The translations under genes and the position numbers were made by a program. A stretch of DNA of 64,000 nt from Candidatus Kapaibacterium sp. GTDB taxonomy: Bacteria > Bacteroidota > Ignavibacteria > OLB7. Shown in pieces: positions 13,636 through 34,727 of this stretch. Within the stretch, counting starts at the first letter, position 1; every line of letters starts with the position of its first letter. Below the pieces are notes generated by a model, which made no database searches, was not told the DNA's origin, and saw only the letters and a list, made by a program, of their open reading frames with translations. The stretch is taken from assembly GCA_035549015.1 (NCBI GenBank), contig DASZRW010000059.1, positions 265 to 64,264 of the forward strand. The letters run 5' to 3'.

Positions 13636-15324
13636 CTACAGCCCCGCGAGAAACGTCCCCAGATTTGCTCCGGTGTCCAGCTCCAGCTTCTTCCGGATGT
13701 TGTACTTGTGTGCGTGGATGGTGCGGATGGAGGTGTAGAGCAGATTGGCGATATCCTTCGTGGAGAGGTCAATCCGCACGAGCGAGCAGACCCGGATCTC
13801 CGTTGGCGTGAGCGAGGGATAGCGTTCCGCCAGCGTGTGCACGAAGTCGTGATGCAGCGTGCCGAGCTGCTCCTCGAAGCGCTTCCAGTCCTCGTCACCG
13901 TGCTTGGCGCTCTCGATCTTCGAGAGCATTTCGTTGATCGTGGCGCGTTCATGCTGCCCGCCTCCCAACAGCCCGGACACCTGCGCCTTCATCTCATCGA
14001 TCAGCTCCTTCTTCTGCACCAGGTTCAACGCCATCGCCGTGAGCTCGTTCTGCTTCAGCCGCATCTCCGCCTCCAACTGTGCCGTTCGCAGGCGATACAG
14101 CTCGCGCTCGCGTTCGGCCTTCTCCAGGTCGAAGCGAACCTGAATCTCCGCCAGCGCCTTCTGCCGTTCCTCCCCTGCGATCTCCTCGCGCAGGCGTGCA
14201 TGGCGTTTGAAGTGAACGAGCGCGCGGGTGGGGTCGCCAAGCGATTCGTACGTGCCGGCGATCGCGTGGTGCAACTCGTGCTGCAGATGTGGCTGGTCCA
14301 GTTCGTGCGCGATGCGCAGCGCCTGATCGAACACGAAGAGCGCCTCCTCGTGTGCACCGAGACGTGAACGGATGCCGCCGATCGCGAGCAGCGCGCGGGC
14401 CCGGAGCGCATCGTCCGATCCCGAGTCCAGCAATGCGTACGCGCGAACCGCAAACCCGAGCGCGATATCGTCGTGCCGCAGCTCGCTCTGGATGCCGGCA
14501 ATGGCCATCAACGCGCGCGCCACATTCTCCGGATCGCCCAGCGCCTCGTAGATCGCTATCGAGCGCAGCGCGTGCTCCATCGCCGTCTCCAGGTTGCCGG
14601 CCGCATGGTACAGGTCGCCGAGCGCCGTGAGCGCGCGCACCTCCTGATAGCGGTTGCCGCTCTCGCGGAACGCCGCGATGCTTCGGTTGAGACAGTCGAA
14701 CGCGGCATCGCGATTCCCCACGCGGCGATACAGCGTCCCAACCGCAAGGAGTGCCGCACCGGCTCCATCCAGATCGCCCAGCCCCTCGCGGATTGCAAGC
14801 GCTTCGAGTTGCAGATCGAGCGCGAGCGGGAAGTCCCCGATATCGGCGCGCATGGTTCCAAGCGCTGCAAGCACGGCGCTCTCATGCGCGGCAAGGCCGT
14901 GCTGCCGTGCAGCCGCATGTGCCGATCGATACCACCCCAGTGCCTGCTGCGGATCGCCTGCAGCGGCGAACGCGTCGCCAAGCATGGTGGCGGTGGCAAC
15001 CTCCCCGGCATGATCGCCAAGCTCGCCGAACATCTCGTGTGCCTCACCGAGATGCCGTACCCCGTCCGCATGACGGCCGGACGCGATTGCGCATCGCCCC
15101 TGCCAGCGCGTGAGCTCCGCAAGCGCCTCGGCATCGCGAAGCTCCGTTGCCAGCCGTACGCCGTTCCCGGCAAGCCCGAGGGCGTAGTCCGGATCGTGCG
15201 CGGCCGCCTCCGCAATCGAGCCGCGTATCGTCTCCAGGCGCCGCGCGGAATCGCGCGCCATCCGCAGGCGCTGCTCGATTGCACCAACTACCTCGTGTTG
15301 CGATGTGCTGATACCTGCCCTCAT
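13636..15324 (-). CDS. TPR-repeat transcriptional regulator with C-terminal LuxR-type HTH (paralog 1)
   Basis: Multiple TPR-like repeats, a central coiled coil, and a C-terminal LuxR/GerE HTH (LTPTEIRVCSLVRIDLSTKDIANLLYTSIRTIHAHKYNIRKKL). Confidence 0.85.
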   Translation of the reverse strand: MRAGISTSQHEVVGAIEQRLRMARDSARRLETIRGSIAEAAAHDPDYALGLAGNGVRLATELRDAEALAELTRWQGRCAIASGRHADGVRHLGEAHEMFGELGDHAGEVATATMLGDAFAAAGDPQQALGWYRSAHAAARQHGLAAHESAVLAALGTMRADIGDFPLALDLQLEALAIREGLGDLDGAGAALLAVGTLYRRVGNRDAAFDCLNRSIAAFRESGNRYQEVRALTALGDLYHAAGNLETAMEHALRSIAIYEALGDPENVARALMAIAGIQSELRHDDIALGFAVRAYALLDSGSDDALRARALLAIGGIRSRLGAHEEALFVFDQALRIAHELDQPHLQHELHHAIAGTYESLGDPTRALVHFKRHARLREEIAGEERQKALAEIQVRFDLEKAERERELYRLRTAQLEAEMRLKQNELTAMALNLVQKKELIDEMKAQVSGLLGGGQHERATINEMLSKIESAKHGDEDWKRFEEQLGTLHHDFVHTLAERYPSLTPTEIRVCSLVRIDLSTKDIANLLYTSIRTIHAHKYNIRKKLELDTGANLGTFLAGL

Positions 15325-15390: not shown

Positions 15391-15825
15391 ATGAATGCCA
15401 TGGACGAAAGCATCGCAGTTGGAACCACGTCGCCAACCATTATCGTTCCGGTTCCCTCGGGGAGCGAGATATTCGTCTATACCCGCTTCGTGGGCACGGG
15501 TGCGAAGTCCGTGACGATCACGCCCGACACGCAGCCCCCCATGGTTGTCTCGAACTGTCCGGAGAACATCACTTCCAACACGTACTCCTTCCGGAACAAC
15601 TCCTCCTCCTCGATCAATATCACCATCGCGTCCGTTGGCTATCTGGTGCCGTGCGGCCAGGCGCCCATGGCACAGGCGTCCATGACGCCGATCGCCGCTT
15701 CATGGTGCAGCCAGGACGGCAAGGTGGGCAACACCCTCTACGGCATCGGGCCGTCGCCGTACCAGGATACGATCGGGATTACCGTGGTGGTGCAGATCGG
15801 CGTCCCCATCAACGCCGTTCCGTAA
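15391..15825 (+). CDS. Small protein, member of a 5-copy paralogous family (S1)
   Basis: 144 aa, divergent from regulator paralog 1. C-terminal motif IGITVVVQIG is shared with four other small proteins in the window. Confidence 0.55.
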   Translation: MNAMDESIAVGTTSPTIIVPVPSGSEIFVYTRFVGTGAKSVTITPDTQPPMVVSNCPENITSNTYSFRNNSSSSINITIASVGYLVPCGQAPMAQASMTPIAASWCSQDGKVGNTLYGIGPSPYQDTIGITVVVQIGVPINAVP

Positions 15826-15923: not shown

Positions 15924-18866
15924 TCAGGCTGTCCGTACGGTTTCGGCATTGATGCTCCGAAGCCGAAGAACGTCGTTGTGGTTGGCGCCAAGAGTCTGCT
16001 CCATCATCCGGATGGCCTGCTGCATGAGTGACTCGCCGGCCGCCGCATCACCGGCGGCATGCAGTGTCCATCCCAGGCGAAAGGTGCTGTTGATCGTTTC
16101 AACATTGTCGTCTCCAAGCGCGTAGCGTCGTATCTGCAGCGCACGCCGAAAGAGCGTAATCGCCTCCGGCATTTCATCGCGGCCTCGCATGACTCCGGCG
16201 AGATTCGTCACTGCCACTGCCACCATCGGATGATTCGGGCCCAGCGTTCGTTCGTAGATGCCGATCGCCTCGCGATACAGGCGGTCGGCATCCTCCGTGA
16301 TGCCCTGGCTGTGAAGCGCGAACGCCATGTTCGTGATGTTCGATGCCGCCTCCGGATGCTCCGCTCCCAGCGTTGCCCGGTTCAGTTCGAGTGCCTGCGA
16401 GAAGAATGCATGGGCCGCCTGGTGCTCGCCGGTTGCCGTCCGGACCGCGCCGAGCGTGTTGAAGACCATCGCCATGAGCAGCGGTTCCCGCGCAACATGT
16501 GCGTTGCAGAGCGCCAGTGCCTGCTGCAGTTCCTCCTCCGCCTCGGCGAAACGTCCCACGGCATAGAGCAGGGCGCCGAGATCCGCCATGTTGCGCGCCA
16601 CGTCGGGATGATACTCCCCGAGCGAGCGGCGGCGAACCGCGAGGGCGCGCCGCGATGACTCGATCGCCTCGTCGCTGCGGAAGACGTGATACAGGAGGGT
16701 GACAAGCGTATCGAGCGCCCCCGTCATCTCCAGCGTATCGCCCTGCCCATCGCCGGCGCGCATCCGCAGCGAGCGGCGGCAGAGCGCCTCGGCATCGGCA
16801 TAGCGTCCGGCCTCGAAGAGAAATCGTGCGATGGCATCGAGCGTGGCGGGAAGCGCCGACGGATCGGCCGTGCGCTCGTATTCCTTCAGACTCTGTGCGT
16901 ACGCAGGGCCCATCTCCACACGCTCGCCGATCTCCAGCCAGTAGTCGAGAAGATCGTACCCCCCGTCTGCGCCGAGAAGCGTTGTGGCGATCGGAATCGA
17001 TTCGATGCAGGCGGCAAGCTCCTCCCGGCGCCCGGCCTGCAGCCACTGCCACGGCTCCTCGAACGCCCGGCGTGCGGATACCGGTTGCGACCGGAAGAAT
17101 GTTGCAATGCGCACGTGCACATCGCCGGCCGCGTTGCCATTCTCCGCCGCCAGATATCGCGCCGCCACGGCATCGCGCAGATAGTCGTGGTAGAAGGTGA
17201 GAAGATTGTCGCGCTGAATCAGATGATGATCCATCGCCGTGAGCAGGAGATCGAGCCGGCCGGCATCGGCGCCGGTGATCGCGTGCAGCTCGGCGCGGCC
17301 CAGCCCCTGGCGCGACGCCCTGATAAGCGTGGCGACGTCGCGAACAAGCGCCTCGCCGTGCTCCGCTTCCAGACGGCGCAGCACACGGTCGAACAACTCC
17401 GTGAGATTGTGCGCCTCCAGATAGTACTCGATGCGATCGTTCACCTCGGCGCTCGTGCGGGCGCGCCGCATCTCCTCCGCGCCGGTGCGGAGGAAGAGTG
17501 GCGTGGCGCCCGCGCTGCTCTCGGAGAGCCTCGTGAGCTGCGTGCCGGAGATGGTGCCGCCGAACTCCTCGATGTAGCCGCGCAGCACCTCACGCCGTTC
17601 GCGCAGCGTGAGCGGGCGTACATCCAGCTCCGGCCATCCGCGAGCGCGCAGCCGCGCAAGGCTTTCGCCTCCGGTGGTGGAAACGATCAACCGCACCTTC
17701 GGCTGAAGATATTCGGGCAGCCAGCCCAGCGACTGCGACTCCAGGTCCAACTGGTTCAATGCATCGATGGCAAGCACAAGCTCCTCGTTCTGCACGTTGG
17801 CCAGCCAGACCGGAAACGCCTCCTCGATCTCCGCGCTTCGTTCCGGCAACGCCGTCTCCAGCGCGTACCGTTGCCGGATCTCCTCCATCACGCGCCGCAT
17901 GAGCGCATGATGGCTGCCGCCCCCCGTTCCGCAGCCAACGTAATGTTCGATCACGAACGCGTCCGGATGGCGCTCGCGGTAGCGGCTGCACCAGTGTGCG
18001 ATCAGCGCGCTCTTCCCTCCTCCTGAAACCCCGGTGATCACCATGCCCGGATTGCCGCCGGCCTCTCCGCTCCCTTCCCGGTGCGCCTTCCCCTGCTCCT
18101 CCAGATGCCGGTTGAGGCGTGCCACATAGTCATCCACATCCAGATAACTCCGGCGCCGCGTGAGTGCGTAGGCCTGGTGCGCTCGACGCTCCGCTTCGAT
18201 TGTTCCGGTACTCTCCATCGATGAGAGCGATGCCTCGATCACCCCCATGAGATCGTTCTGTATCCACCGCGCAAGCACTTCCGGTTCGGCGGCCCGCTCC
18301 CGTACGGGGAATCCGCTCCTCCTGATGCGTGCCTTCAATGCGGCAAGGCGTTCGGCGCCCGTCCCGCTTCCGGCGTCGAACCCCTCTGCGTCAGCCGCGC
18401 GTTCCGTATTCGCGCCGATCCCCTCCTCATCCTCCACGATGTAGAAGAATGCCCGCGACTCCATGGGCGGATGTCGAAGCGCGCCTTCGATCATCAACAT
18501 CTCGAGCAGCCCCATCCCTTCCTGCAGCGCTCCGTGCAGCCACGGGTGGCGGAGAAGCAGGCCGGTATTCTCCACGTCCGCATGTGTGGGAACCCATCCG
18601 TACGATCTCCCGGCAAGCCCGAGCAGGATGGGCCGTTCCCGCTGCAGCAGATCGAGCGCGAGTGCCAGGCGTCCCCCGTGCGGCATACCGGCCCGCGATG
18701 CCGGGCTGCAGGGATCGATCACCACGAGTTGTGCCTCCCGCTCGCGGCAGATCCGTTGGAGTTCCGGAAATGTCTGCGTGAGAAGATGGTCCGGAAGCGG
18801 ACCGGCTTCATCGCCGGAGCGGGCGAGAACGATCGTGATGGTTGGATGGGCACCGGTTGGTTGCAT
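15924..18866 (-). CDS. STAND NTPase (NB-ARC-like) with C-terminal TPR repeats (paralog 1)
   Basis: Walker A GVSGGGKSAL and Walker B LVLAIDALNQLD. The IVSTTG and GATPLFL (GxPL) motifs are typical of AP-ATPase/NB-ARC. The C-terminal repeats are TPR_12-like. The start is inferred at MQPTGAHP. Confidence 0.85.
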   Translation of the reverse strand: MQPTGAHPTITIVLARSGDEAGPLPDHLLTQTFPELQRICREREAQLVVIDPCSPASRAGMPHGGRLALALDLLQRERPILLGLAGRSYGWVPTHADVENTGLLLRHPWLHGALQEGMGLLEMLMIEGALRHPPMESRAFFYIVEDEEGIGANTERAADAEGFDAGSGTGAERLAALKARIRRSGFPVRERAAEPEVLARWIQNDLMGVIEASLSSMESTGTIEAERRAHQAYALTRRRSYLDVDDYVARLNRHLEEQGKAHREGSGEAGGNPGMVITGVSGGGKSALIAHWCSRYRERHPDAFVIEHYVGCGTGGGSHHALMRRVMEEIRQRYALETALPERSAEIEEAFPVWLANVQNEELVLAIDALNQLDLESQSLGWLPEYLQPKVRLIVSTTGGESLARLRARGWPELDVRPLTLRERREVLRGYIEEFGGTISGTQLTRLSESSAGATPLFLRTGAEEMRRARTSAEVNDRIEYYLEAHNLTELFDRVLRRLEAEHGEALVRDVATLIRASRQGLGRAELHAITGADAGRLDLLLTAMDHHLIQRDNLLTFYHDYLRDAVAARYLAAENGNAAGDVHVRIATFFRSQPVSARRAFEEPWQWLQAGRREELAACIESIPIATTLLGADGGYDLLDYWLEIGERVEMGPAYAQSLKEYERTADPSALPATLDAIARFLFEAGRYADAEALCRRSLRMRAGDGQGDTLEMTGALDTLVTLLYHVFRSDEAIESSRRALAVRRRSLGEYHPDVARNMADLGALLYAVGRFAEAEEELQQALALCNAHVAREPLLMAMVFNTLGAVRTATGEHQAAHAFFSQALELNRATLGAEHPEAASNITNMAFALHSQGITEDADRLYREAIGIYERTLGPNHPMVAVAVTNLAGVMRGRDEMPEAITLFRRALQIRRYALGDDNVETINSTFRLGWTLHAAGDAAAGESLMQQAIRMMEQTLGANHNDVLRLRSINAETVRTA

Positions 18867-19235
18867 GTGTCGGAGCGCGGACTCTCGGGGAAATTGACGA
18901 CGGTTCGGCGAACGTGGGAGGGAACGGAATGTCCGGTGGGCCGGGTGTTCCGCTGCGAACTTATGGGAAATGTGCGCGTTGTACCAGAGTCCGGGAAGGG
19001 GACGGCGCCGCAAAGCCGTTGCACCCGGATGTGATCATATGCCATCCCGGCGATGCTACCAACCTTTCACAGAGAGGCGGCGGTTTTTTTGGCTGGTATT
19101 CCAGCCGGATAGCAGGGGCAGAAGTCCCCACGCGAGGCGATTGCGGCGGCGGCATTCATCCGGATTGCGCCGCCGGAGTCACGGAGATGGAGCGATGCGG
19201 GGAACACGGTCATCGATTCAATTGTCGATCCCATT

Positions 19236-19603: not shown

Positions 19604-19852
19604 CTATTTGAAGTCGCTCGTGGCTCCGGCGTGAACGCACTTCACGCCGGGGAACTCATAGGTTTTGCCATCGCCATCGAACACCCCATTGATGTTGTAG
19701 AACTGGTCCACCGTTGGAAGGTCGCCGGAGTCGAATGTTCCGGCCGAGAAGACGCCGAAGGAACTGTACGTTCCGGTTCCCTTCACAAGCCTGCCCGATC
19801 CCTGGATCGGGTTGACGTAGACGTTCGAGTAATGGCCTTCGGGATTTGGCAT
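19604..19852 (-). CDS. 82-aa conserved small protein (copy 1)
   Basis: Near-identical paralog of 31038..31286 (shared GVFSAG...DLPTV...GVFDGDGKTYEFPGV...SDFK). It lies directly upstream of STAND paralog 1 and is followed by a GC hairpin. Confidence 0.6.
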   Translation of the reverse strand: MPNPEGHYSNVYVNPIQGSGRLVKGTGTYSSFGVFSAGTFDSGDLPTVDQFYNINGVFDGDGKTYEFPGVKCVHAGATSDFK

Positions 19853-19961: not shown

Positions 19962-20177
19962 CTACAGGCATTCCTTGATGCAGGTGAATGCGGCGGGGCC
20001 GGCGCAGAGAAGCCAGCACGCCGGATTCGGGCCGCACAGCACGCAGCCCAGGGCGGCGGCGCCGCATTTCAGGATGCAGCTCAGGTCCAGCATCGGTGCG
20101 ATTTCCTCGCGCCGGTTCTGTGTGATGCGTGACGATCGGTCGATACTGTTGCCGGCAGAGAGCTTCGGAATCTTCAT
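19962..20177 (-). CDS. Cys-rich precursor-like peptide 1 (71 aa)
   Basis: AAGGAG RBS 7-8 nt upstream of the ATG. The N-terminal ~33 aa are hydrophilic (MKIPKLSAGNSIDRSSRITQNRREEIAPMLDLS). The C-terminal 38 aa are hydrophobic with 8 Cys: CILKCGAAALGCVLCGPNPACWLLCAGPAAFTCIKECL. Confidence 0.65.
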   Translation of the reverse strand: MKIPKLSAGNSIDRSSRITQNRREEIAPMLDLSCILKCGAAALGCVLCGPNPACWLLCAGPAAFTCIKECL

Positions 20178-20347
20178 GCGATACTCCTTCGTGGTATGAA
20201 CGTTGATGGTGGGGGTCCGTTCTGCCGCTACGTGATCCGCCCGTTCAACGATCGCCACGCCCCGGCACGAGGCCGGGACGTGGATCGATCATTGCGAAGC
20301 GCACATGGGCGGTAACGTATCGGCGCTTCGAACCATGTCCGCGGTTG

Positions 20348-20581
20348 CTAGCTCAGGCAGCGGGTAATACAGCCGATGGCAGACGGACCCGCGCACGTTG
20401 CCCAGCAGCCCAGATTGGTGCCGCATGGCAGACACTTCAGCACGCCGATTCCGCAACCGAGAAGACATGTGATGTTGATCATTGCAGTGATGCTCTGTGC
20501 CTCACTGCGCGAGGTGGTACCGGCCTGTACACCGCTACCGTTGCGGACGCTGCGGTCCGCGGAAAACCGAGGCAACTTCAT
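20348..20581 (-). CDS. Cys-rich precursor-like peptide 2 (77 aa)
   Basis: AAGGAG RBS. Leader-like MKLPRFSADRSVRNG... N-terminus. C-terminal CLLGCGIGVLKCLPCGTNLGCWATCAGPSAIGCITRCLS has Cys spacing identical to peptide 1. Confidence 0.65.
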   Translation of the reverse strand: MKLPRFSADRSVRNGSGVQAGTTSRSEAQSITAMINITCLLGCGIGVLKCLPCGTNLGCWATCAGPSAIGCITRCLS

Positions 20582-20627
20582 GGCCTACTCCTTGGGTTTG
20601 ATTGAGTGTATGATGAGTGGGGGGGAT

Positions 20628-21641
20628 TTATCCGATGCCGTAGTATCTCTGGAATGGAGCGTTGATGAACGGGAACTGGCCGGTTACATCCACGCTGCAA
20701 TACCACTGCTGCACAAGTCCGGTTTGCAGGCCGGTGAAGGAGAAGATCACGTCGAGCACCTTGTTCTTTCCCTGCACGGCGGAAGGGGCTGTGCGGATGC
20801 CGGTCAGTGAGTACGGCTCCTGTGTCGGGAGCTCCGATGTCGGCTGGCTCTGAGAAGGATATCGGAGGTTGTAGACCTGGGCATATGCCGATATGTATTG
20901 CAGCACGACATAGTTGATGGCGCGCTGCGGGTCCGTGTTGCCGGCATTGATCGCGAACCCGAACACCTGCGCGAAGATCGGCAGGACATTCTGCGGAGTG
21001 CCGTTCGTCAACTCGGTGATGGCACTCAGATAGCTCTGGCTGGAGGCGATGTATACCTCCTTCGCCGTCAGAACGGGAAGCCCGCCGCCGACGCGACCAT
21101 CGTCCGGAAGAGCCGTGCCTTCGGTTCCGCGAACGATGCCCCAGATCAACGAGCCCACGTCCGAAAGCGTGGGATCGTACAGCAACGCCACCAGATTCTG
21201 CAGCTCGTAGTTCGATTGCGGGTGGATCACATATACATCCGTGTTCCCCTGCTGAAACAGCCACGTCATTTCACGAGCGATGTACAGATTGTCCGTCTGT
21301 TTCAGATACCGTGCCACCAACCAGTCGATGTTCCTGTCCTGATCGGACTCGTCCAGTGTTTGAAGGAACTCCTTCTCGAGGCTGAGTGATGGAAACCGAG
21401 CAGCGATGCCGCCTACCGAGAAGACGTTCACCGCCGGAGCTGCGGCCTGCGCGCCGCTGCCGGCCGTAGCGTTCGCTGCGGAGGTGCAGGAGCAGTACGG
21501 TGCGATCTCGGATTGCATCGCGTAGTGTGTGATCGCGGTCATGCCGAGGCCTGCCTGCCACTCGCCTGCAAGGCCGCGCGCCGGTGTGCTGCCTGCAATC
21601 GTGCGAAGACTGCCTCCGGCCGTGAGTTGTGGTAGATTCAT
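20628..21641 (-). CDS. Hypothetical protein, paralog A of an unknown two-member family
   Basis: Shares CxC, LYIARE..W, A[IL]NY[VI][VI]L.Y and the C-terminal W[YF]C.VDVTGQFPF motifs with 22684..23718. The start is set at MNLPQL. The ORF-track N-terminal extension is Arg/Ser low complexity. Confidence 0.6.
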   Translation of the reverse strand: MNLPQLTAGGSLRTIAGSTPARGLAGEWQAGLGMTAITHYAMQSEIAPYCSCTSAANATAGSGAQAAAPAVNVFSVGGIAARFPSLSLEKEFLQTLDESDQDRNIDWLVARYLKQTDNLYIAREMTWLFQQGNTDVYVIHPQSNYELQNLVALLYDPTLSDVGSLIWGIVRGTEGTALPDDGRVGGGLPVLTAKEVYIASSQSYLSAITELTNGTPQNVLPIFAQVFGFAINAGNTDPQRAINYVVLQYISAYAQVYNLRYPSQSQPTSELPTQEPYSLTGIRTAPSAVQGKNKVLDVIFSFTGLQTGLVQQWYCSVDVTGQFPFINAPFQRYYGIG

Positions 21642-21786
21642 GATTCTCTCCTGTATCGAGCGTTGATGTCGAGTTACGTTGTCGCGGAACCTTGCTGGCT
21701 GCGCATCGCGGAAGCGCACGCGAAGGCGCGCCGGCCTCGGGGCCTTTCTCCTGAGCGCCTGCCGACGGGCATGAATGGCCCCAGCC

Positions 21787-22647
21787 CTATGCCTGCTTCT
21801 CGGATGGCACAGCCTGCTGCTGATTTGAATGGCGGTAGCGGCTTGGCGGCACGGATGATGTCTGCTTCGCGATCGCGTTCGCTGTGGGATCGGTGCTGAT
21901 GAAGATCGGCTCCTGCGGAAGCGTGGAGATGTACCACTGGGGTTGTGACTTCTGGGAGCCGTTGCCCAGCCTGCCGTTGCTTGTGCCCGAGTAGTCGTAG
22001 GCGTGGTCGCCATAGCCCTCGTTCGCCCGCCAGTTGTGGCGCAGTCGCGCGACAACCGTTCCCTCGGCCGTTCGGATCGTGAAGTTGCCGGAGAAGTCGA
22101 AGTAGTTCAGGCGGCTGAGATCCTCCTGCCGTATGATGCCCTGCCAGATGCGGACATATCCCAGCGAACCCCTGAAGTAGTTGGTGATGGTTGCGCAACT
22201 GCGGGTCTCCTTCCATGCGCCAAGGAGGGCAGGCCCCACGATGAACGGCTTGGACGTCGCAAGCGGCTTCGTCTCTCCGGGAACCGCGGCATTCACATAG
22301 AGCGTTGCAGCTGCCCCGTCCATCGTGATCGCGACATAGTACCAGGTGCCTGGGGTGAACGTCTCCGTGAACGTGAGCGTCGTTGGGCTGCCTCCATCCA
22401 CCGTCAGCTCGAGGTTGCTGCCGTTGAGCCCGATGCGGAAGCTTCCGGCGCCGCTTTCGCCGTCGTCGGCAAACAGCGACTGCTTTCCTTCGAGACGTTC
22501 GGCATAGAACCAGATCTCCACCGTGATCCTGTCGATCGCTTCGGCTTCCGGAATCTCCACGAGGCTCTTCTCGCCATCATAGCGGAGCACGGAAACTCCC
22601 AGCGGGGCATAGCGCGGAATTGTTATGGACATAGTCATCTCTCCCAT
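21787..22647 (-). CDS. Concanavalin-A-like / LamG-fold domain protein
   Basis: VEIWFYAERLEGKQSLFADDG...FRIGLNGSNLELTVDGG...GTWYYVAITMDG...TLYVNA resembles the LamG/jelly-roll lectin fold. Confidence 0.6.
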   Translation of the reverse strand: MGEMTMSITIPRYAPLGVSVLRYDGEKSLVEIPEAEAIDRITVEIWFYAERLEGKQSLFADDGESGAGSFRIGLNGSNLELTVDGGSPTTLTFTETFTPGTWYYVAITMDGAAATLYVNAAVPGETKPLATSKPFIVGPALLGAWKETRSCATITNYFRGSLGYVRIWQGIIRQEDLSRLNYFDFSGNFTIRTAEGTVVARLRHNWRANEGYGDHAYDYSGTSNGRLGNGSQKSQPQWYISTLPQEPIFISTDPTANAIAKQTSSVPPSRYRHSNQQQAVPSEKQA

Positions 22648-22683
22648 GTATTGAGTTCGTTATGCACGTGATGGTGTTGGCTG

Positions 22684-23718
22684 TTATGGATGTGGGTAGT
22701 ACCGGGCAAGCGGCCGTACCAGGAACGGGAACTGCCCGGTGACGTCCACCTTGCAGAACCAGTACACCGGCTCTCCCGTCTCGCGGTACTCGTAGTGGAA
22801 GATCACGTCCACGATCCTGCGTACGCCCTGTACGTTCGCGCCGTGCACGGAGACTTCCACCAGCGAGCAGGAGCGGTAGGGATCGATCGGTATGGCGCCG
22901 TCTGCGGCCGAGGACTGAACCGAGACAACGCCCCGGAGCATGTTCACCGCCATCTGATACAGATCCGGATAGCGCAGGATGATGTAGTTCAGTGCACGAT
23001 GCTCGTCGGTCTCGCCGGCGTTGTCGCCCAGATCGAGGAACTGCTCGAAGATGTACTTGGCCGTGGTGGTGTCGGTTCCCGTGCGCTCGGCGATTGCGGC
23101 TACGAATGCCGTCTCGGTGAAGCTGTAGATGTGATTGGCAACCACCAGCGGAAGCTGCAGTCCTGCGCAATAGTCCACCGGCGCGATCGGTCCGCGCGGG
23201 CCGATGATCACATCGAAGCGGCGGTCAGAGGTGCTGATCGGTTCCAGCCCGGAAACCATGTCGTACAGTTCCACATAGGAGCGCGGCTTTACGATGTAGG
23301 CGTCCACACTGGCGCCGGAGTTGGAGCCGTCGATCTGCAATACCCAGCAGACCTCGCGGGCGATATAGAGATACTGCCCCTGGCTCAGAACCTCGTACGG
23401 AAGCTCACCGTTGGGGAGCCAGTTGCGGAGCGAGGAGACGGCGAAACCGAATTCCTTGGAGAGTCCCGGTGTTGGCTCCACCGTCCGGAGCGATCCGATG
23501 GCATAGATGAATCCCGGTGCGGCCGGTGCCGCCTCCGCTGCTGCGCCATTGTTGCCGCCGCAGGCACAATCGTGCGGAACGATCGTTACCACTGGCTGCG
23601 CGGACTGTGCGATGGTTGCAAGCGATGTGGATGCCGGCGCCGCATGCGAAGGGGCAAGCACGGCCAGCGACTCCAACTGCGATGTTCCGGCCTCGTGCAG
23701 GACAGGTGTTTCTTCCAT
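22684..23718 (-). CDS. Hypothetical protein, paralog B of the unknown family
   Basis: Homologous to 20628..21641 across the whole length. C-terminus WFCKVDVTGQFPFLVRPLARYY. Confidence 0.6.
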   Translation of the reverse strand: MEETPVLHEAGTSQLESLAVLAPSHAAPASTSLATIAQSAQPVVTIVPHDCACGGNNGAAAEAAPAAPGFIYAIGSLRTVEPTPGLSKEFGFAVSSLRNWLPNGELPYEVLSQGQYLYIAREVCWVLQIDGSNSGASVDAYIVKPRSYVELYDMVSGLEPISTSDRRFDVIIGPRGPIAPVDYCAGLQLPLVVANHIYSFTETAFVAAIAERTGTDTTTAKYIFEQFLDLGDNAGETDEHRALNYIILRYPDLYQMAVNMLRGVVSVQSSAADGAIPIDPYRSCSLVEVSVHGANVQGVRRIVDVIFHYEYRETGEPVYWFCKVDVTGQFPFLVRPLARYYPHP

Positions 23719-23777
23719 GATGGTTATCCTCTCGGTCTAGGTGTATGTGTTGTTCCGCGCCGTGGGCGCAGGAGTGA

Positions 23778-24743
23778 TTACAGCGATTGCAGTGCCGCGA
23801 GGCTCGCGGCCGCGTTCAGCGTTGGCGGAACGATGCTGCGGCGGCGTATGCCGGGAATCAGCAGAGCCCGGCGTATCGTGGCGGCCGTTGCCGATGGCTT
23901 CACCGACCACAGAAGCGCCGCGGTTGCGGTTACGAAGGGAGCCGCCACGCTGGTGCCGCTCATCGTGGTGTACCCCTGTCCGGGAACCGTACTGAGCACG
24001 CCGGTGCCGGGTGCCGCAAGCCCGCGCCGTCCGATCCAGGCGCCGAGGTTGCTCTGGCGCAGGAGCGATCCGCCGGCGTCGCACGCCGCCACCGGCACCA
24101 GCCAGGGATGGTCGAACAGATCCGCCCGTCCGATTCGCCCGTGATTTCCCGCGGCAACAACGATCAGCACGCCGCTGCTGCGGGCGCGGTTGAAGGCGGC
24201 TGTGAGTGTCGGACTCTCTTCGATGGCGGTGCTGTTGGCGCCGAGGCTGAGGTTGATGATCGCGGCTCCTGCGTCGATCGTGTCGTGGAGCGCTTCGGCG
24301 AGATCGGTGGGACGGACGGCGGGACATTGGCGGGGATCGGGGGCTTCGCAGAAGATCGTTCGCACCAGCATCGTACAGCCGGGAGCGATCGCCGGGGCCT
24401 GCGATCCGCGTTGCGCGCCGATGATGCCCGCAACGAACGTTCCATGCATGCAGGCGAAACTGCTCGGTGCCGTACAACCCGCCGGTGTGGCGGTTCCAAC
24501 GGGCGATATCCTCGTCTCGCGCAGATCGGGATGTCCGGTGTCCACCGGGCCGTCGATGATGCCTACCACGATCTCCGGTCGCCCCTCGGTGAGCGATGTC
24601 AACGAATCCAGTGCAATGATGCCGGGTAACGACGCCATGATGTGTTCGCTTCCGTTTGCGCACGGCACGGCCATTGCGTGCAGCGCGCATGATTGAATGA
24701 TGTTGATGTTCGGGGGTTGGGATGGTGCCGACGGGGAATGCAC
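23778..24743 (-). CDS. Subtilisin-like serine peptidase (S8 family), apparently leaderless
   Basis: Catalytic Asp (VGIIDGPVD), His (HGTFVAGII) and Ser (GTSVAAP) motifs in the canonical order. No obvious signal peptide. ~300 aa. Confidence 0.85.
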   Translation of the reverse strand: MHSPSAPSQPPNINIIQSCALHAMAVPCANGSEHIMASLPGIIALDSLTSLTEGRPEIVVGIIDGPVDTGHPDLRETRISPVGTATPAGCTAPSSFACMHGTFVAGIIGAQRGSQAPAIAPGCTMLVRTIFCEAPDPRQCPAVRPTDLAEALHDTIDAGAAIINLSLGANSTAIEESPTLTAAFNRARSSGVLIVVAAGNHGRIGRADLFDHPWLVPVAACDAGGSLLRQSNLGAWIGRRGLAAPGTGVLSTVPGQGYTTMSGTSVAAPFVTATAALLWSVKPSATAATIRRALLIPGIRRRSIVPPTLNAAASLAALQSL

Positions 24744-24959: not shown

Positions 24960-26681
24960 TTACGTAGGCCGGGCTCCGTGAAGGCCGGCGAGGAATGTGG
25001 TGAGGTTCATCCTCGGGCTCAGGCCAAGCTTCCTGCGGATGTTGTGGCGGTGCGTATGAACGGTGCGCACCGATGTGAACAGGAGGTTCGCGATTTCCCT
25101 GGTGGAGAGGTTGATGCGGGTGAGCGAGCAGATGCGAAGCTCCGTTGGCGTCAGCGCCGGCCATTGCTGCGAGAGATGCTGCAGGAAATCCTGATGCGGC
25201 GTATCCAGCTGTCCCTCGAATGCAAGCCAGTCGCTTTCTCCCCCGGAGGCGTGGCGCAGCTCGGCGATCATCCTCTCCACGGAATCATCTCCGCTTCCTT
25301 CCTGATTCCCGGCCCGTGCCGCCCGTGTGGTGTGCTGCAGTTTCTGCAGGCGCCGCTCCAGCGTTTCAAGCAGCTCGTTCTTCTGAACCAGGCGCAGGGA
25401 CATCGCAGCGATCTCGCTCTGCCGCGCGCGCGCCTCGGCCTCCAACGTCTCGGCGCGCAGACGGTAGGCCTCCCGCTCGCGGTCCGAACGTTCCAGATCG
25501 AATCGTACCTGCAACTCCGCCAGAGCGCGTTGCTTCTCGACGCCGGCCAGCTCCTCGCGCAGCGCTCCATGGAGCCTGCAATGTTCCAGCGCGCGCTCGC
25601 TGCGCCCAAGCCGGTGATACAGCGCCGAGAGCGCGGCATGCGCTTCCGCCTGTTGCTGAAGCGCGCCGGTTGCTCGTGCCAGGCCCAGCACCTGATCGAA
25701 AATGAAGAGCGCGCGATCGTATTCTCCGATGCCGGCATGCAGCCGGCCAAGCGCCAGAAGAATGCGAACGCGCAGAGCGTCATCGGAGCCGTCGCGCAAC
25801 GAGGCATAGGCGCGCATCGCCATCGCGAGCGCCGCGGCGGGTTCTCCCATCTGTTCGTGAATCTCGCTTATCAGGATCATCACGGCGCAGGCGCTCTGCG
25901 CGTCGTTCAACATGTCGTAAATTGTCAGCGCACGTAGTGCATGGTCGATCGCGCGCCGAGGCTCGCCGCGCCAGAGGTCGATCTCCGCCATGCGCGTACG
26001 CGCCTCAATTTCCCCCAACCGATTCCCCGTCTCCCGACATAGAACGATGCTGCGTTCCAGCGCCTCGATTGCGCCCGGTGCGTCGTGTGTGCGCATGTGG
26101 AGCGCAGCCAGCGATGCAAGGATGCGTGCGGCCGCATGGCGATCGCCCTGCATCTCCTGCAGAGCAAGGCTTTCCAGGTAGCGCTCCATCGCCTGTGCGT
26201 AATCGCCGATCGATGCGTACAGGTCGCCCAGCGATTCGAGCGCGGCGGCGCGGGTCGCCGGGGCCTGGCTGCCGGCCTCCTCCAGCGCCGTGTGGTACCA
26301 TCGATGGGCCTGCGTGCGATCGCCCGCGCCCGTGAACGCCTGCGCAGCGGCAAGGGCGCAGGAGGATGCGCTGTCGTGCCGTTGAAGCTCGGAGAATATT
26401 CCATGTGCCTCGCGGAGATCCTCCAGTGCCGCGGTATGCTGCTCCAGCCGTTGCAACGCGCAGCCGCGTAGATACAGCAGCATTGCGGAGGAGGCGATAT
26501 TCCGCAGGCGTACGGAGATCGCGTACCCTTCGGATGCCAGGCCGGCTGCATACGATGGCTGCTCGCGGACGAGAGCCGGGAGCGATGCCAGGATCAACTC
26601 CAGCTTCCGCGCGGCATCGCTCGTCATCAGCAGGCGTTGCTCGATCTGCCCGGTATCCGTGGTTCCCATTTCGATCTGCAT
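24960..26681 (-). CDS. TPR-repeat transcriptional regulator with C-terminal LuxR-type HTH (paralog 2)
   Basis: Same architecture as paralog 1. C-terminal LTPTELRICSLTRINLSTREIANLLFTSVRTVHTHRHNIRRKL. The start is inferred at MQIEMGTTD. Confidence 0.85.
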   Translation of the reverse strand: MQIEMGTTDTGQIEQRLLMTSDAARKLELILASLPALVREQPSYAAGLASEGYAISVRLRNIASSAMLLYLRGCALQRLEQHTAALEDLREAHGIFSELQRHDSASSCALAAAQAFTGAGDRTQAHRWYHTALEEAGSQAPATRAAALESLGDLYASIGDYAQAMERYLESLALQEMQGDRHAAARILASLAALHMRTHDAPGAIEALERSIVLCRETGNRLGEIEARTRMAEIDLWRGEPRRAIDHALRALTIYDMLNDAQSACAVMILISEIHEQMGEPAAALAMAMRAYASLRDGSDDALRVRILLALGRLHAGIGEYDRALFIFDQVLGLARATGALQQQAEAHAALSALYHRLGRSERALEHCRLHGALREELAGVEKQRALAELQVRFDLERSDREREAYRLRAETLEAEARARQSEIAAMSLRLVQKNELLETLERRLQKLQHTTRAARAGNQEGSGDDSVERMIAELRHASGGESDWLAFEGQLDTPHQDFLQHLSQQWPALTPTELRICSLTRINLSTREIANLLFTSVRTVHTHRHNIRRKLGLSPRMNLTTFLAGLHGARPT

Positions 26682-26806
26682 GGCGGAAATCGTTTCGGTT
26701 GCAGACTCCGGTACCGCGCGTGTTCGTGCCGATGGTCCGGACACGAGGCGCGGCGATGCCGGAGCCTGTTGATGTTCGTTCAACTCATTCCCAGGAGCGT
26801 TGCGCT

Positions 26807-27268
26807 ATGGATTCCCCATCCACACCGGCCGGCTCTGTTGCCCGGTCGGTTATCGATTTCAAGCTCCCGGTGGCGAAGAACCAGCAGGCGTTGGTGCTGG
26901 TTCGGTTCACCGGGACGTTGGCGAAGTGGGTCTCCGTGTACTTCCCGAACCGCATCAAGGTGGTGTCCAGTTGCGAAGCCGGCACCACCGCCGTGCCCAT
27001 CGTGCTGGACAATCACGGCGAGGAGCCGATGGATCTGCAGCTCGTGCCGGAATGCAGCGAGAAGGAGTGTCCCGATCAGAATCCCTCCGCGCAGCTGAAC
27101 GTGATTCTCCAGTACGAATCGTCCAGCCCGATGCGCCACTGGCTGCTCTCCGCATCGGAGATATCGGAATCCGATACGATCTCCATCACCATCATCGTGC
27201 AACCCGGCATCATCATCGACCCCGGAAGCGGAGATGCAGTACGTATTCCGGCCCGCACCATGCCGTGA
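26807..27268 (+). CDS. Small protein, paralogous family member (S2a)
   Basis: 153 aa. ATG preceded by a GGAG-like RBS. C-terminal ISITIIVQPGIII motif. Confidence 0.5.
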   Translation: MDSPSTPAGSVARSVIDFKLPVAKNQQALVLVRFTGTLAKWVSVYFPNRIKVVSSCEAGTTAVPIVLDNHGEEPMDLQLVPECSEKECPDQNPSAQLNVILQYESSSPMRHWLLSASEISESDTISITIIVQPGIIIDPGSGDAVRIPARTMP

Positions 27269-27357: not shown

Positions 27358-27765
27358 ATGCTGCAATCCGACAATCCAGCCTTCCCCGCTGCTCTGCCTG
27401 TTCCAACGTTCCCCATGGTAGGGACGTCGGACGCCAATCTGATCTGTCTTGTCCATGTCGCGTTTCTGGGGCCTACTGAAAAGGTCGTCACCTTCACTCT
27501 CGTCGGTCGCAGCGCCCCCTGGATCACCGTGAACTCCGGCGATGGTCCGTTCTGGAGCCGCATATTCCAGCCGAAGGACGGGCTGAGCCTGATAGGGGTG
27601 CCCGATGTGGCGAACTGCGCGTGGTGGTCGCCGCTCGGTGCCTGCGCCGGCAGCATATACTCCGCCTTCACCTACGGATATTCGCTCAACACCGGCATCG
27701 ATCAGGATGCCGTGCTGATCACCATTATCGTGCAGCCGGGAATCATCGCTCCCATTCCACTGTAG
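27358..27765 (+). CDS. Small protein, paralogous family member (S2b)
   Basis: 135 aa. C-terminal VLITIIVQPGIIAPIPL motif. Confidence 0.5.
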   Translation: MLQSDNPAFPAALPVPTFPMVGTSDANLICLVHVAFLGPTEKVVTFTLVGRSAPWITVNSGDGPFWSRIFQPKDGLSLIGVPDVANCAWWSPLGACAGSIYSAFTYGYSLNTGIDQDAVLITIIVQPGIIAPIPL

Positions 27766-27786: not shown

Positions 27787-30700
27787 TTACAGTGCGAACT
27801 CCATCCGGTACGCCAGTTGTGCCTGGATCTCGTTGCAGATCGCATGCAGGGAGATGATGTCCGGATGGGTTGCGCCCAGGTGCGCCTCGTGAATCGGAAT
27901 GGCCCGGCTGTAGATCTCGAACGCCTCGCCCAGACGTCCCTGCATGCGCAGCGCCCCGGCCAGGCGGGTAGCGCTGCCGGCCGTTTCCAATGCGTCCGCT
28001 CCGAACAGATCGCGGCGGATAACATACGCGCGCCGCAGCAGCTGCTCCCCCTCCTCCAGCTCGCCGCTGTCGCGCAGCATCATGCCGAAGCTGGTCAGGA
28101 AGAGAGCGGTCCTTGGATGCCGTGCGCCGAGAATCCGCTCGGCGCACGCAAGCGCATGCCGGTAGTGCACGGCTGCTGCGGAGGTATTGCCCATCTGTTG
28201 AAGCGCGAATCCCAGGTTCACCCGGTTCGATGCCGTCTCCAGATGTCCCTCTCCCAGCAGGCAGCCGTTCACCGCAAGGGCGCGTTCGAAGTACATGGCT
28301 GCCTCGGCGAAGTCCCCGCGAGCCACCCGCATCGCGCCGAGATTGTTCACGATCATCGCAACCGCAGCCTCGTCCGCGTCGTTGGCGAGGCAGAGCGCCT
28401 CCAGCAGGTGGATGTCCGCCTCCGCATGGTCCCCGCATGCATGGTACATCGCACCCAGCGCGGCCAGATTGCGTGCACGGTGCTTCGCATCCATTCCAGA
28501 CGCAGCTTCGCGCAGGCGCAGCGCGCGTTCGGAGACGCGGATCGCCCGCTCCCACTCTCCCGTGTGATAGAGCAGCGTTGCGTACGAATCCAGTGCCGGG
28601 AGCATCGTGGGGTTGTCCTCACCGTGAGCAGCGCCGCGCTCCTCCAGTGCCGTGCGGCACAGGTGCTCCGCCTCGGCGTAGTGCCCGGCGTGAAGCAGAA
28701 GGCCGGCAATGGCCTCGCGTGCTGCGACGAGATCCAGCGAAGGGTTCGCTTCCAGCTGGCAGGCCTGCATCGCAGTGCGATACGTTTCCACCATGCCGTA
28801 CCGATTCTCCAGCGCCCTCCAGTATTGCAGCAGTTCGTACGGGTCGCCGTCGGCAAGCAGCATCGATGCCGTCCGGATATCCGCGATGGCGGTGTGAAGC
28901 TTCCGCCATGCGCCGGCATGCATTGCCTGCCACGGTATCTCCTCCACGTGGCGGCGTGCAATGGGCTGGGATGCAAACCAGTCCGCGATCCGCTCGCGGA
29001 TCTCCGGGATGCGTCCGGGGCGTTCCACCAGATAGCGCCGCTCCACGGCTCTGCGGAATCCGTCGTGGTGGAAGCGGAACAGTCCCTCGTGGCCGATCAG
29101 ATGGCAGCCGAGCGACGCCAGCACCTCCTCCGTCTCCCCTTCGTCCAACAGGCCGATCGCCGCGATCTCCTGCCGCGCAAGGCCGCGGCGGGCCGCCCAT
29201 AGCAGGGTGAGCACCGTGCGCATCCGTGCCACGCCATGCCGGCCTTCCAGTTGTTCCAGTACGCGATCGAACAGCTCCGGCAGCGTCTCCGCCGCGAGAA
29301 GGCGATTCAGGAGAGCCGGTTCATCTGCGCCGGAAGCGGTTGCGTTCAGCCTCTCCAGTTGCGTTCTCAGATAGAGGGGGTTGCCTCCTGCCGTCCCCGC
29401 CCCGATGCGTGCGTACCAGTCGCCGTAGCGTGCCTCCCCGAACTCGCGAACGTATCGGGTTATCAGGTCGCGCCGTTGCTTCTGCGTAAGCTGCACCATG
29501 CGAAGCTCCGGCCAGGCTCGCGCGTGCAACGCCGCCAACGGTTCGGTATCGGTGGTGGAGACGATCAGCAGCACATGCGGCGGAATATGTTCAGGAAGCC
29601 AGGAGAGATCCCGGGAAGCTTCGTCGAGCTGATCGAGGCCGTCCACCACCAGCACCAGGTTCTCATGTTGAAGATGTCCCAGCCAGAGCGGAAACGCCTC
29701 ACGAATGCCGGCGGCATCCGTTGGGAGCGGATCGTCCACGCCGAGGCGTTCCCGTATCTCCGCCATGATGTGGCGCAGCACCGTGGCGCCGTCGTTGCCG
29801 GCGGATGCGGCCGCCACGTGATGCTGCACGATGAAGAGGTGGGGATGCTCGCTCCTGATCCGTTCGCACCAGTATGCCAGGAGTGCGCTCTTTCCCGCGC
29901 CCGATTCACCGGACACCACCAGCCCGGCATTGCGCTCCGGCTCGTCCCTCTCCGCAGCCGCCGTTCCGGGCTGGTTGTTCAGGAAATCGTCCAGGCGCTC
30001 CAGGTATCCCGGAATCTCCATGTAGGCATGCGTGCGCGAACGCGCGAACGATCGGTGCATCCGGCGCTCCGCATCGAGAGGCGAGCCGGTGGCAGCGGGA
30101 AAGAGGCGGTTGATCAGGTCCATCAGGTCGCGGCGAACGAGGTCGAGCAACTGCTCCCGCGTATGCACTGTGTGGTGCAGCGTCTGCCCGCTGGATCGGA
30201 TCATGTCCAGGATGCGCTCGCGTGCGGCGGCCGCAACGTTGCGCCGGCGCCGCGGCATCGCATCGTAGTACGACATTTCCTTCTCCGCCTGCGTACCGGA
30301 GACCGATGGAGGGGGTGCGGTGGCGTAGGCCTCCGGATGTTCCGGAGCCGGGTCATAGGGGAAGAACAACATCCTTCCGGCGAGCGCCGGGTTCCGGAGC
30401 GCGCCTGCGAGCGCCTCCATCGAAAGAAGGAACGGTGAGCCGGCAGTCCCTGCGCTGCGCCAGCGATACGGGTCGGTGCGGGCATCGCGGCCATCTGCGG
30501 CAGGGGGGCCCTCTACCGCCGGGTTGCTTCCAACGATCACCAGCACATAGATCCGCTGCCCGGTGTGCGCTGCAGGGGGGTGGTTGAAGATCGTCTCACC
30601 GTATGCCCCGGCTGTATCTGTGCCTGCAAGCTCGCACGTGGCGATATCTCCGCCGCGCGCGCGGCAGATGCCGCTCAGCTCCGGCAGCAGCGCCTGAGCC

Positions 30701-30804
30701 AGCCATGCTCGTTCCGCATCGATATCGCACTGTATGCCGACGATCGCGATCCGGATCAACGGGAACGCATCGTGCGGCGATGGTGCCGAGGGCTCGCAAC
30801 TCAT
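27787..30804 (-). CDS. STAND NTPase (NB-ARC-like) with C-terminal TPR repeats (paralog 2)
   Basis: Walker A GESGAGKSAL, Walker B LVLVVDGLDQLDE, IVSTTD and GGNPLYL motifs, and a TPR_12-like C-terminal array. The start is inferred at MSCEPSAP. Confidence 0.85.
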   Translation of the reverse strand: MSCEPSAPSPHDAFPLIRIAIVGIQCDIDAERAWLAQALLPELSGICRARGGDIATCELAGTDTAGAYGETIFNHPPAAHTGQRIYVLVIVGSNPAVEGPPAADGRDARTDPYRWRSAGTAGSPFLLSMEALAGALRNPALAGRMLFFPYDPAPEHPEAYATAPPPSVSGTQAEKEMSYYDAMPRRRRNVAAAARERILDMIRSSGQTLHHTVHTREQLLDLVRRDLMDLINRLFPAATGSPLDAERRMHRSFARSRTHAYMEIPGYLERLDDFLNNQPGTAAAERDEPERNAGLVVSGESGAGKSALLAYWCERIRSEHPHLFIVQHHVAAASAGNDGATVLRHIMAEIRERLGVDDPLPTDAAGIREAFPLWLGHLQHENLVLVVDGLDQLDEASRDLSWLPEHIPPHVLLIVSTTDTEPLAALHARAWPELRMVQLTQKQRRDLITRYVREFGEARYGDWYARIGAGTAGGNPLYLRTQLERLNATASGADEPALLNRLLAAETLPELFDRVLEQLEGRHGVARMRTVLTLLWAARRGLARQEIAAIGLLDEGETEEVLASLGCHLIGHEGLFRFHHDGFRRAVERRYLVERPGRIPEIRERIADWFASQPIARRHVEEIPWQAMHAGAWRKLHTAIADIRTASMLLADGDPYELLQYWRALENRYGMVETYRTAMQACQLEANPSLDLVAAREAIAGLLLHAGHYAEAEHLCRTALEERGAAHGEDNPTMLPALDSYATLLYHTGEWERAIRVSERALRLREAASGMDAKHRARNLAALGAMYHACGDHAEADIHLLEALCLANDADEAAVAMIVNNLGAMRVARGDFAEAAMYFERALAVNGCLLGEGHLETASNRVNLGFALQQMGNTSAAAVHYRHALACAERILGARHPRTALFLTSFGMMLRDSGELEEGEQLLRRAYVIRRDLFGADALETAGSATRLAGALRMQGRLGEAFEIYSRAIPIHEAHLGATHPDIISLHAICNEIQAQLAYRMEFAL

Positions 30805-30887
30805 TGCCGGTTCCGAAAGAATGGTTGACACGAACTGCTGCAATCGCATGCGGCGGCCTGGCCCATGCGGTTGCCGGACATATCGCG

Positions 30888-34511: not shown

Positions 34512-34727
34512 GATCCGTTGCCATAACGATGAAAGAATACATCCGGCACGAACGCGCGGTGCGGAGTGCGGCGGTGTTCGTCTGCGCCGCCGGTCAACTC
34601 GGTAATTCCTCAGTAGTGCGGAAGCCCGTCCATCTCGATACCATTGCACCAACCAACACCGGGCCGTGCAACGCAGCGGCCCGCCAACATCAGCCGGCAT
34701 GTTTGCCGCAACCAGGAGGATCTCATC

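Follow-up and report, generated by a model that had tools for sequence, protein, structure and literature searches.

Cyanobactin biosynthesis is among the closest described relatives of the system reported here. In this pathway, ribosomal precursors in which variable, cysteine-containing cores follow a conserved leader are handled by two proteases, and the A-type S8 leader protease, PatA, which recognizes the site G(L/V)E(A/P)S (PMC10885120), shares with PatG a C-terminal domain of unknown function (DUF). Mann et al. reported that the DUF of PatG has a novel fold, forms a zinc-mediated dimer in the crystal with ligands that are not conserved, and weakly resembles enterotoxin-like OB (oligonucleotide/oligosaccharide-binding) folds (PMC4259220). 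The domain is fused to an oxidase in PatG (PMC4259220) and is associated with a kinase in DolG (PMC12639078). We examined two paralogous proteins, A and B, encoded in a stretch of 64,000 nucleotides (the window; contig DASZRW010000059.1 of assembly GCA_035549015.1, positions 265 to 64,264) of a metagenome-assembled genome (MAG) of Candidatus Kapabacteria. Their genes belong to a row on the minus strand (19962-24743) in the order S8 protease, DUF-B, LamG protein, DUF-A, peptide 1 and peptide 2. We are highly confident that A and B are anciently diverged, free-standing copies of the PatA/PatG C-terminal DUF and members of a cassette composed of an S8 protease, the DUF and leader-bearing proteins.

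Free-standing relatives of the PatG domain

An earlier note, made from the DNA sequence alone, described A and B as aligning end to end, and BLASTP bears this out with 32% identity over 304 amino acids (aa; E = 1e-41), far beyond chance. All four shared motifs that it quoted were found in their places: CSC at A50 and CAC at B51, LYIAREMTWLFQ at A119 and LYIAREVCWVLQ at B117, AINYVVLQY at A241 and ALNYIILRY at B242, and, near the C-terminus, WYCSVDVTGQFPFI at A313 and WFCKVDVTGQFPFL at B320. The note also considered the pair an unrecognized family. In line with this, NCBI lists both as “hypothetical protein” (VHI13_08535/08525; A as the same 337-aa product), and a search of NCBIfam produced no match above cut-off for A, B, the window peptides, typical peptides of the family or a ~50-aa protein discussed below. 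However, both proteins score above the Pfam gathering thresholds of 27 and 25.9 bits for PatG_D (PF18047) and PatG_C (PF18065), i.e., 43.4 and 55.9 bits for B and 57.7 and 51.8 bits for A (E = 1.9e-15 and 1e-13 for A), and the fold was solved in 2014 (4UVQ), so that the idea of a previously unrecognized family can practically be dismissed. Relatives appear in the databases as “PatG domain-containing protein” or “cyanobactin maturation protease PatG family protein,” and precomputed Pfam domains are listed for all homologues except a few truncated ones.

The remote-homology search that the note had suggested led to the same structure by two routes. Direct sequence searches of A and B against the PDB gave no match and a profile was required; the profile, built from 40 members, matched one PDB sequence, 4uvq_A (E = 5.6e-8, 234 profile positions), with which it has in common a VYAxG strand, AR..W.L and N-x-G-x-T-x3-R-A-L-N. 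The AlphaFold model of B has a mean confidence score (pLDDT) of 84, with residues 67-344 above 90 and the tail below 50, whereas that of A reaches 82.7 (AlphaFold2), again with an N-terminal tail predicted to be disordered. For each model, Foldseek returned a single significant structure, 4UVQ (E = 4.4e-12 and a template-modelling (TM) score of 0.76 for A), and A and B have the same fold as the PatG DUF. The next matches, latexin and fetuin-B, are not significant (E = 0.017-0.7, probability up to 0.54, TM 0.16-0.25), and a resemblance to latexin- or cystatin-like inhibitors was rejected on that ground. Neither a thioredoxin fold, for which there were no structural matches and whose CxxC would sit at a helix start, unlike the CxC/CxxC in the disordered tail, nor the winged helix-turn-helix of PqqD-like recognition elements (RREs) was found in A or B. 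No PADLOC or PHROGs match was obtained for either protein (the S8 protease gave only generic subtilase matches), and an origin in a defence system or phage was rejected. The assignment leads to a recognized family and, contrary to what would have spoken against the note's interest in the pair, points towards peptide maturation. Its view of A and B as the most interesting unknowns of the window holds for the domain's function, which is still without a known role (PMC4259220, PMC4663559), but not for the family itself.

Compared with the PatG DUF, to which they are 15-17% identical, A and B fit in profile, fold and signature but lack the fused architecture at the C-terminal end of a subtilase. 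They have, moreover, a disordered tail with a leader-like junction and a CxC motif, preceded in A by a full leader. The zinc ligands of PatG (H1087, D1088, and H1090, just before the signature) are apparently not retained in the aligned region.

Residue conservation was assessed in 260 full-length homologues. The block VDVT..FPF is conserved (V 90%, D 95%, V 86%, T 80%, F 83%, P 98%, F 89%), but the preceding W.C is poorly kept, with Y (29%), F (25%) or W (23%) at the Trp position and V (40%), C (26%) or T (14%) at the Cys position. Of the cysteine and tryptophan residues singled out in the earlier note, those of WxC are, therefore, not conserved, while the N-terminal motif is broadly kept as CxC or CxxC (e.g., CGC, CPTC, CATC), in 76% of stand-alone and 69% of fused members. 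G235 and R241 are invariant (100%) and N233 and N244 are kept in 95-97%. Two further cysteines, C124 and C184 (B numbering), are both present in 242 sequences, both absent from 19 and discordant in eight (Fisher p = 6e-22, phylogeny not accounted for). Canonical members have this pair. A, with cysteines only at positions 50, 52, and 315, has lost it, and the PatG DUF (4UVQ) is likewise without it.

When searched exhaustively with a profile, the DUF family comprised 2,091 clusters (50% identity) at a threshold of E<=1e-3, of which 552 reached E<=1e-30. Free-standing proteins of ~300-350 aa make up about 80% of the best 150 representatives, and S8-DUF fusions of ~580-650 aa about 20%; two JmjC-DUF fusions and two leader-DUF proteins with C-terminal extensions are also among them.

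A cassette of protease, DUF and leader-bearing proteins

The S8 protease has retained its catalytic Asp, His, and Ser motifs (IIDGPVD, HGTFVAG, SGTSVAAP) and matches Pfam Peptidase_S8 (5e-31). Its closest solved relatives are the cyanobactin N-terminal proteases 4h6v, 3zxx, 3zxy, and 4h6w (E = 4e-30 to 3e-27), compared with 1.8e-22 for the thermophilic subtilase 1dbi; the classical subtilisins, BPN' and its relatives, do no better than 1e-19. No G-type macrocyclase was recognized among the 60 best chains listed. Of the 606-position PatA/PatG model TIGR03895, only the protease half is matched (103 bits vs. a cut-off of 421). Since the protease is nearest to the cyanobactin proteases and matches only this half, the S8 protease and the free DUFs together are a split version of the PatA architecture.

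To place the operon in a wider context, 84 loci were compared, i.e., the window, four look-ups (an alphaproteobacterium, Chitinophaga skermanii, Actinomadura, and Paraburkholderia) and 79 loci from a species-level genome scan; as all were gathered by homology to the DUF, this domain is present in each of them. They are distributed over more than 10 phyla, including Acidobacteriota, Proteobacteria, Actinomycetota, Bacteroidota, Cyanobacteria, Planctomycetota, and Verrucomicrobiota, with Chloroflexota, Zixibacteria, Hydrogenedentota, and a Methanosaeta MAG as further taxa. A stand-alone, PatA-type S8 protease occurs within 8 kb in 77 of the 84 loci, and 72 have a small open reading frame (ORF) that matches a regular expression for the leader; a stricter, same-strand expression retrieved 128 ORFs from 64 loci. 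The location of the paralogs between a protease and precursor-like peptides, to which the earlier note had drawn attention, was borne out and is conserved across many phyla. All-against-all clustering of the neighbors within 8 kb revealed no further widely conserved family in the 84 loci beyond the S8 protease, the ~50-aa protein and the LamG protein. The invariant core of the cassette is the S8 protease, the DUF and proteins with a common leader of ~36 residues.

Two subtypes can be distinguished. The single-DUF subtype (56 loci) has, between the S8 and DUF genes, the highly conserved ~50-aa protein MRLPGF(I/V)SD.E(V/I)GLGDVIKR.TYA.GIKPCGGC.RRAAALNRWMVF (…LNRW), which combines a leader-like box with CGGC (L004, L011, L015-L083; e.g., 7803-7955 in L027); it is not recognized by Pfam or NCBIfam and occurs neither in the window nor in any of the two-DUF/LamG loci. 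The two-DUF subtype, to which the window belongs, has two DUFs and a LamG gene and was also found in Chitinophaga, Roseivirgaceae, Okeania, Oscillatoria, and an alphaproteobacterium, while actinomycetes have LamG with one DUF. The LamG gene occupies the same position in L002, L003, L005, L007-L010, L014, L023, L025, L035, and L067. In the two-DUF loci the S8-proximal copy resembles B (221-253 bits vs. 117-161 bits against A) and the divergent distal copy mostly resembles A (Bacteroidota, Cyanobacteria, and Alphaproteobacteria), and this recurrence indicates that the duplication is old.

The leader of the small proteins starts with M-x-[LIM]-P-[G/x]-[F/L]-T-A-E-x-S-L. Among the 128 ORFs P4 is conserved in 100%, A8 in 96%, F6 in 82%, and T7 in 77%, although the selecting expression already constrained P4 and residues 3, 6, 7, and 8, either fully or in part, so that independent evidence comes only from position 5 and from position 9 onwards. 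A junction of the form [VIL]-x-P-[QAM] occurs in 91 of the 128 and ends at a median residue of 36 (interquartile range 35-37). Cysteine is nearly absent from the first 30 residues (15 of 3,840 positions), while the cores have a median of six (range 2-16), an even number in 96% of the 91 junction-bearing ORFs, which points to fully paired cysteines. The peptides of the window follow a better conserved framework, C-x3-C-G-x5-C-x2-3-C-G-x4-C-W-x2-C-A-G-P-x4-C-x3-C. Among peptides of this type Cys2 and Cys7 disappear as a pair, as do Cys3 and Cys6, and this paired loss suggests nested disulfides (C1-C8, C2-C7, C3-C6, C4-C5), which would give a disulfide-stapled hairpin. The peptides match no Pfam or NCBIfam model and are named only “hypothetical protein” in RefSeq; a homology search with peptide 1 recovered one relative only, indicating that the cores are too variable for sequence searching. 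Macrocyclization of the PatG type, with a cyclotide-like product, was considered and rejected because there is no C-terminal follower sequence and the protease is of the A type.

Loci in which the DUF is fused to S8 (L085) or JmjC (L084) have this leader too. In the former it precedes a phospholipase-A2-like domain (3166-3636; …YGRWCGPGHGG…CMMHDLCY…), and in the latter (1513-2423 and 2502-4634) it is found on two proteins of 141 and 156 aa next to a JmjC_2-DUF fusion, a stand-alone S8 protease and a sulfotransferase-like gene. Leader-bearing proteins in the cassette loci can reach 140-190 aa. In Chitinophaga skermanii (L002, 4982-7064), four tandem paralogs of 150-190 aa, starting with MKL… and containing a conserved HC…NNCC(T/S)C(T/A) motif, lie just upstream of the S8 gene; these could represent further cargo or a family akin to thiol peptidases.

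The leader and its junction are not confined to the putative precursors. In the six frames of the window only three ORFs match the leader expression, i.e., the two peptides and A. The leader box is likewise present in the A-type homologues P0122-P0127, P0135, P0136, and P0138 and on the second, distal DUF of L002, L005, L006, L007, and L010 (starts such as MNIPQLTARQVL, MKLPRIVPTKHF, MILPKLTAELSL, and MTLLKLTAAQSL); in total 18 of 231 stand-alone DUFs have it. More widespread is the combination of a junction, phi-x-P-[QAMHYS] (phi, hydrophobic), with a cysteine pair within four residues: it occurs in the tails of 91 of the 231 stand-alone DUFs, where 2.4 were expected from 200 shuffles (maximum 7), and in nine of 29 S8-DUF linkers. 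The tail consensus across the family is phi-x-P-Q-x-C-x(1-2)-C.

The operon shares with cyanobactin pathways an A-type S8 leader protease with the DUF and ribosomal precursors with conserved leaders and variable, cysteine-containing cores, and the junction, G-[VI]-x-P-[QA], resembles the PatA site. However, a cyanobactin cluster has two proteases, while the operon has a single S8 protease and no macrocyclase. A YcaO heterocyclase (PatD), PatB/PatC, and a prenyltransferase were found neither in the operon nor in the other large ORFs scanned. The window peptides also differ from PatE, with its G(L/V)E(A/P)S and AYDG sites, in having the leader MK[LI]P..SA… and cores that end at the last cysteine without a follower. 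Across the cassette the cores are 35-100 residues long with 2-16 cysteines and come from more than 10 phyla, not from cyanobacteria alone. The operon does not, therefore, qualify as a cyanobactin cluster; it resembles a minimal PatA step that acts on a different and much larger class of substrates.

Possible roles of the DUF proteins

In our opinion, the best overall explanation, with a probability of roughly 0.55, is that the operon encodes a split leader peptidase of the PatA type, with A and B as its accessory subunits. The DUFs are taken to be partner subunits of the S8 protease on the basis of the S8-DUF fusions (“Rosetta stone” evidence) and of the co-occurrence of the two. In such a system the protease would cut the leader off at the phi-x-P-[Q/A/M] junction, in analogy to the G(L/V)E(A/P)S site of PatA, and release even-cysteine cores that are probably disulfide-stapled (with eight cysteines in the window). 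The DUF proteins would associate with the protease as non-catalytic adaptor or regulatory subunits, and their disordered N-terminal tails would imitate the substrate, in B by a junction and CxC and in A by a whole leader, a junction and CxC. These tails may be bound in, or cut by, the active site, by which the enzyme would be tethered or gated, and A may be recruited through its leader box to the leader-recognition surface used by the precursors. For this adaptor or pseudo-substrate mechanism we would accept somewhat less than even odds. A wider role of the DUF as a docking or scaffolding module for enzymes acting on leader-tagged peptides fits its associations with JmjC, oxidase, and kinase domains. 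More speculative still, and in our view rather doubtful, is that the cassette as a whole constitutes an undescribed, phylum-spanning class of ribosomal peptide or toxin maturation with variable, disulfide-stapled peptides, in which the DUF would be a substrate-mimicking regulatory or thiol-handling subunit and A a leader-fused component.

Several observations weigh against accessory subunits with substrate-like tails. The strict junction and cysteine pattern occurs in only ~40% of the stand-alone DUFs, and 24% have no Cys motif. The invariant polar residues (R241, N233, N244, D325, E89, and tyrosines) could equally mark a catalytic site. No conserved exporter or transporter was found within 8 kb in the 84 loci, with an ABC exporter in only 10. 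An AlphaFold prediction of A from an A-enriched alignment left the leader disordered and undocked on its own domain, which is uninformative either way. Isothermal titration calorimetry and nuclear magnetic resonance showed no binding of the PatG DUF to PatE or heterocyclized PatE (PMC4259220); no function has been shown for this domain, and a review of 2015 agrees (PMC4259220, PMC4663559).

The DUF recurs, like an RRE, fused to different tailoring enzymes (S8, JmjC) and also as a discrete protein in the same clusters. However, its fold is unrelated to that of PqqD, and the only test of leader binding (PatG DUF vs. PatE) was negative. Leader-directed bacteriocin systems and polymorphic-toxin systems with N-terminal trafficking domains are likewise comparable in that one conserved N-terminal tag is placed on highly variable, Cys-rich or phospholipase-A2-like, tandem cargos next to a dedicated protease; in contrast to double-glycine/C39 systems, the protease here is a cytoplasmic-type subtilase, and there is neither a conserved transporter nor a double-glycine motif.

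The frequency of CxC/CxxC in both stand-alone and fused members raises the question whether the DUFs act on cysteines themselves, in a thiol-disulfide relay or by another Cys cross-link, through the tail motif and, in canonical members, C124/C184. The co-variation of this pair, the invariant Arg, Asn, Asp, and Tyr residues, the P-C-G-G-C of the ~50-aa protein in the single-DUF subtype, and cores with even cysteine numbers whose paired losses suggest defined disulfides are all compatible with such an enzyme. We nevertheless consider it unlikely, as a quarter of the family is without the motif and both A and the PatG DUF are without C124/C184. In cyanobactin pathways, moreover, cysteines are heterocyclized by a different enzyme, PatD. 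The complete leader and junction of A could also mean that the DUFs are cargo, i.e., pro-proteins whose tails are trimmed by S8 and whose mature domain acts outside maturation, for example as a carrier, in immunity or in association with a toxin. The variety of proteins marked by the leader (Cys-rich peptides, a phospholipase-A2-like domain, proteins of 140-190 aa) and the enterotoxin-like resemblance (PMC4259220) would agree with this, but the DUF accompanies all 84 loci (in a collection based on the DUF) while the leader-bearing neighbors differ between loci, fusions of the DUF to S8 or tailoring enzymes are frequent, and only 18 of 231 stand-alone DUFs have the leader box. A role as cargo thus seems improbable.

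Slightly more improbable again is a role of the DUF in protease inhibition or latency, in which a domain of tandem cystatin-like, latexin-like topology would keep a cytoplasmic S8 protease inactive until substrate is present. Latexin and fetuin-B are indeed the next structural matches for both models, pseudo-substrate tails would be compatible with inhibition and DUF and S8 are paired in 77 of 84 loci; these structural matches are, however, not significant. Isolated PatA protease domains are described as active but slow, with no known report of their inhibition by the DUF. An inhibitory module would, in any case, overlap with accessory subunits of a split leader peptidase rather than exclude them.

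The operon, its surroundings and significance

A and B are separate genes, with the S8 gene 59 bp upstream of B. The intergenic gaps of the operon measure 36-170 bp, and AGGAG-like ribosome-binding sites precede four of the six starts (Table 1). A scan of the operon for promoters and terminators gave nothing above shuffle expectation.

Table 1. Genes of the operon and leader-like elements of A and B (positions in the window).
Feature	Position	Strand	Remarks
PatA-type S8 subtilase, catalytic domain only	23778-24743	minus	286-321 aa; likelier start 24638, giving 286 aa
Paralog B, 344 aa, stand-alone PatG_D+PatG_C, canonical copy directly after S8	22684-23718	minus	ATG; GAGAGGA upstream
Junction-like phi-x-P-x then CxC in disordered N-terminal tail of B, residues 46-53, I-V-P-H-D-C-A-C	23560-23583	minus	
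LamG (concanavalin-like) protein	21787-22647	minus	between B and A; Pfam Laminin_G_3 3.2e-18
Paralog A, 337 aa, divergent, leader-bearing stand-alone DUF	20628-21641	minus	ATG; AGGAG upstream
Precursor-type leader box of A, residues 1-13, MNLPQLTAGGSLR	21603-21641	minus	leader regular expression
Junction of A, residues 45-52, E-I-A-P-Y-C-S-C, near-identical to E-I-A-P-M of peptide 2, then CxC	21486-21509	minus	read from sequences
Precursor peptide 1, 77 aa, leader MKLPRFSADRS…SITAM then 8-Cys core	20348-20581	minus	AAGGAG ribosome-binding site
Precursor peptide 2, 71 aa, leader MKIPKLSAGNS…EIAPM then 8-Cys core	19962-20177	minus	AAGGAG ribosome-binding site

The LamG protein of the window has weak matches to phage virion structural proteins. 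The alphaproteobacterial locus (L001, 10836-14529) encodes two 612-aa proteins in tandem, each of which combines LamG with a Baseplate_J domain in a fusion.

Repeated modules flank the cassette, with three paralogous TPR-LuxR (GerE) regulators (13636-15324, 24960-26783, and 32829-35171, minus strand; 42-46% identity) and three paralogous STAND ATPases of the NACHT/NPHP3-type TPR group (15924-19013, 27787-30849, and 35796-38747, minus; 38-44% identity). Just downstream of a NACHT-TPR gene each lie two 82-aa paralogs that are 73% identical (19604-19852 and 31038-31286, minus), the first directly after peptide 2; neither has a Pfam, NCBIfam, PADLOC or PHROG match. ORFs of 135-153 aa occur between the regulator and NACHT genes (15391-15825, 26807-27268, and 27358-27765, plus), two of which end in …ITIIVQPGII (b1 and b2 are 26% identical), and a 237-aa ORF is found at 31585-32298 (minus); of these, 15391-15825 and 31585-32298 were scanned and gave no family match. 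The first regulator is preceded by an ADP-ribosylglycohydrolase gene (12581-13516, plus; E = 1e-66) located upstream of it. A PLD-like protein (42224-43678, minus) has the Por_Secre_tail sorting domain of the type IX secretion system, consistent with a host of the Fibrobacteres-Chlorobi-Bacteroidetes group.

Full-text literature searches yielded nothing on stand-alone PatG-DUF proteins, PF18047/PF18065, the leader family or the cassette and brought up only the structure paper of 2014 and reviews in which the domain has no known function, although their coverage was incomplete and a prior description is possible. As far as could be found, the family and its fold are known, while the cassette, the leader on A, the substrate-like tails and the loss of the co-varying Cys pair in A are apparently new.

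The window presents the DUF in its simplest setting: separate, duplicated, beside a minimal protease and its substrates, and with substrate-like tails. With only six genes, the operon could serve as a simple experimental system for working out what the cyanobactin DUF does, be it in protease docking or cleavage, a thiol relay or the pairing of A and B. If our interpretation is confirmed, “cyanobactin-like” annotations outside the cyanobacteria will need to be re-read, and the cassette would represent a large untapped source of disulfide-rich peptides, with a cargo that is sometimes toxin-like.

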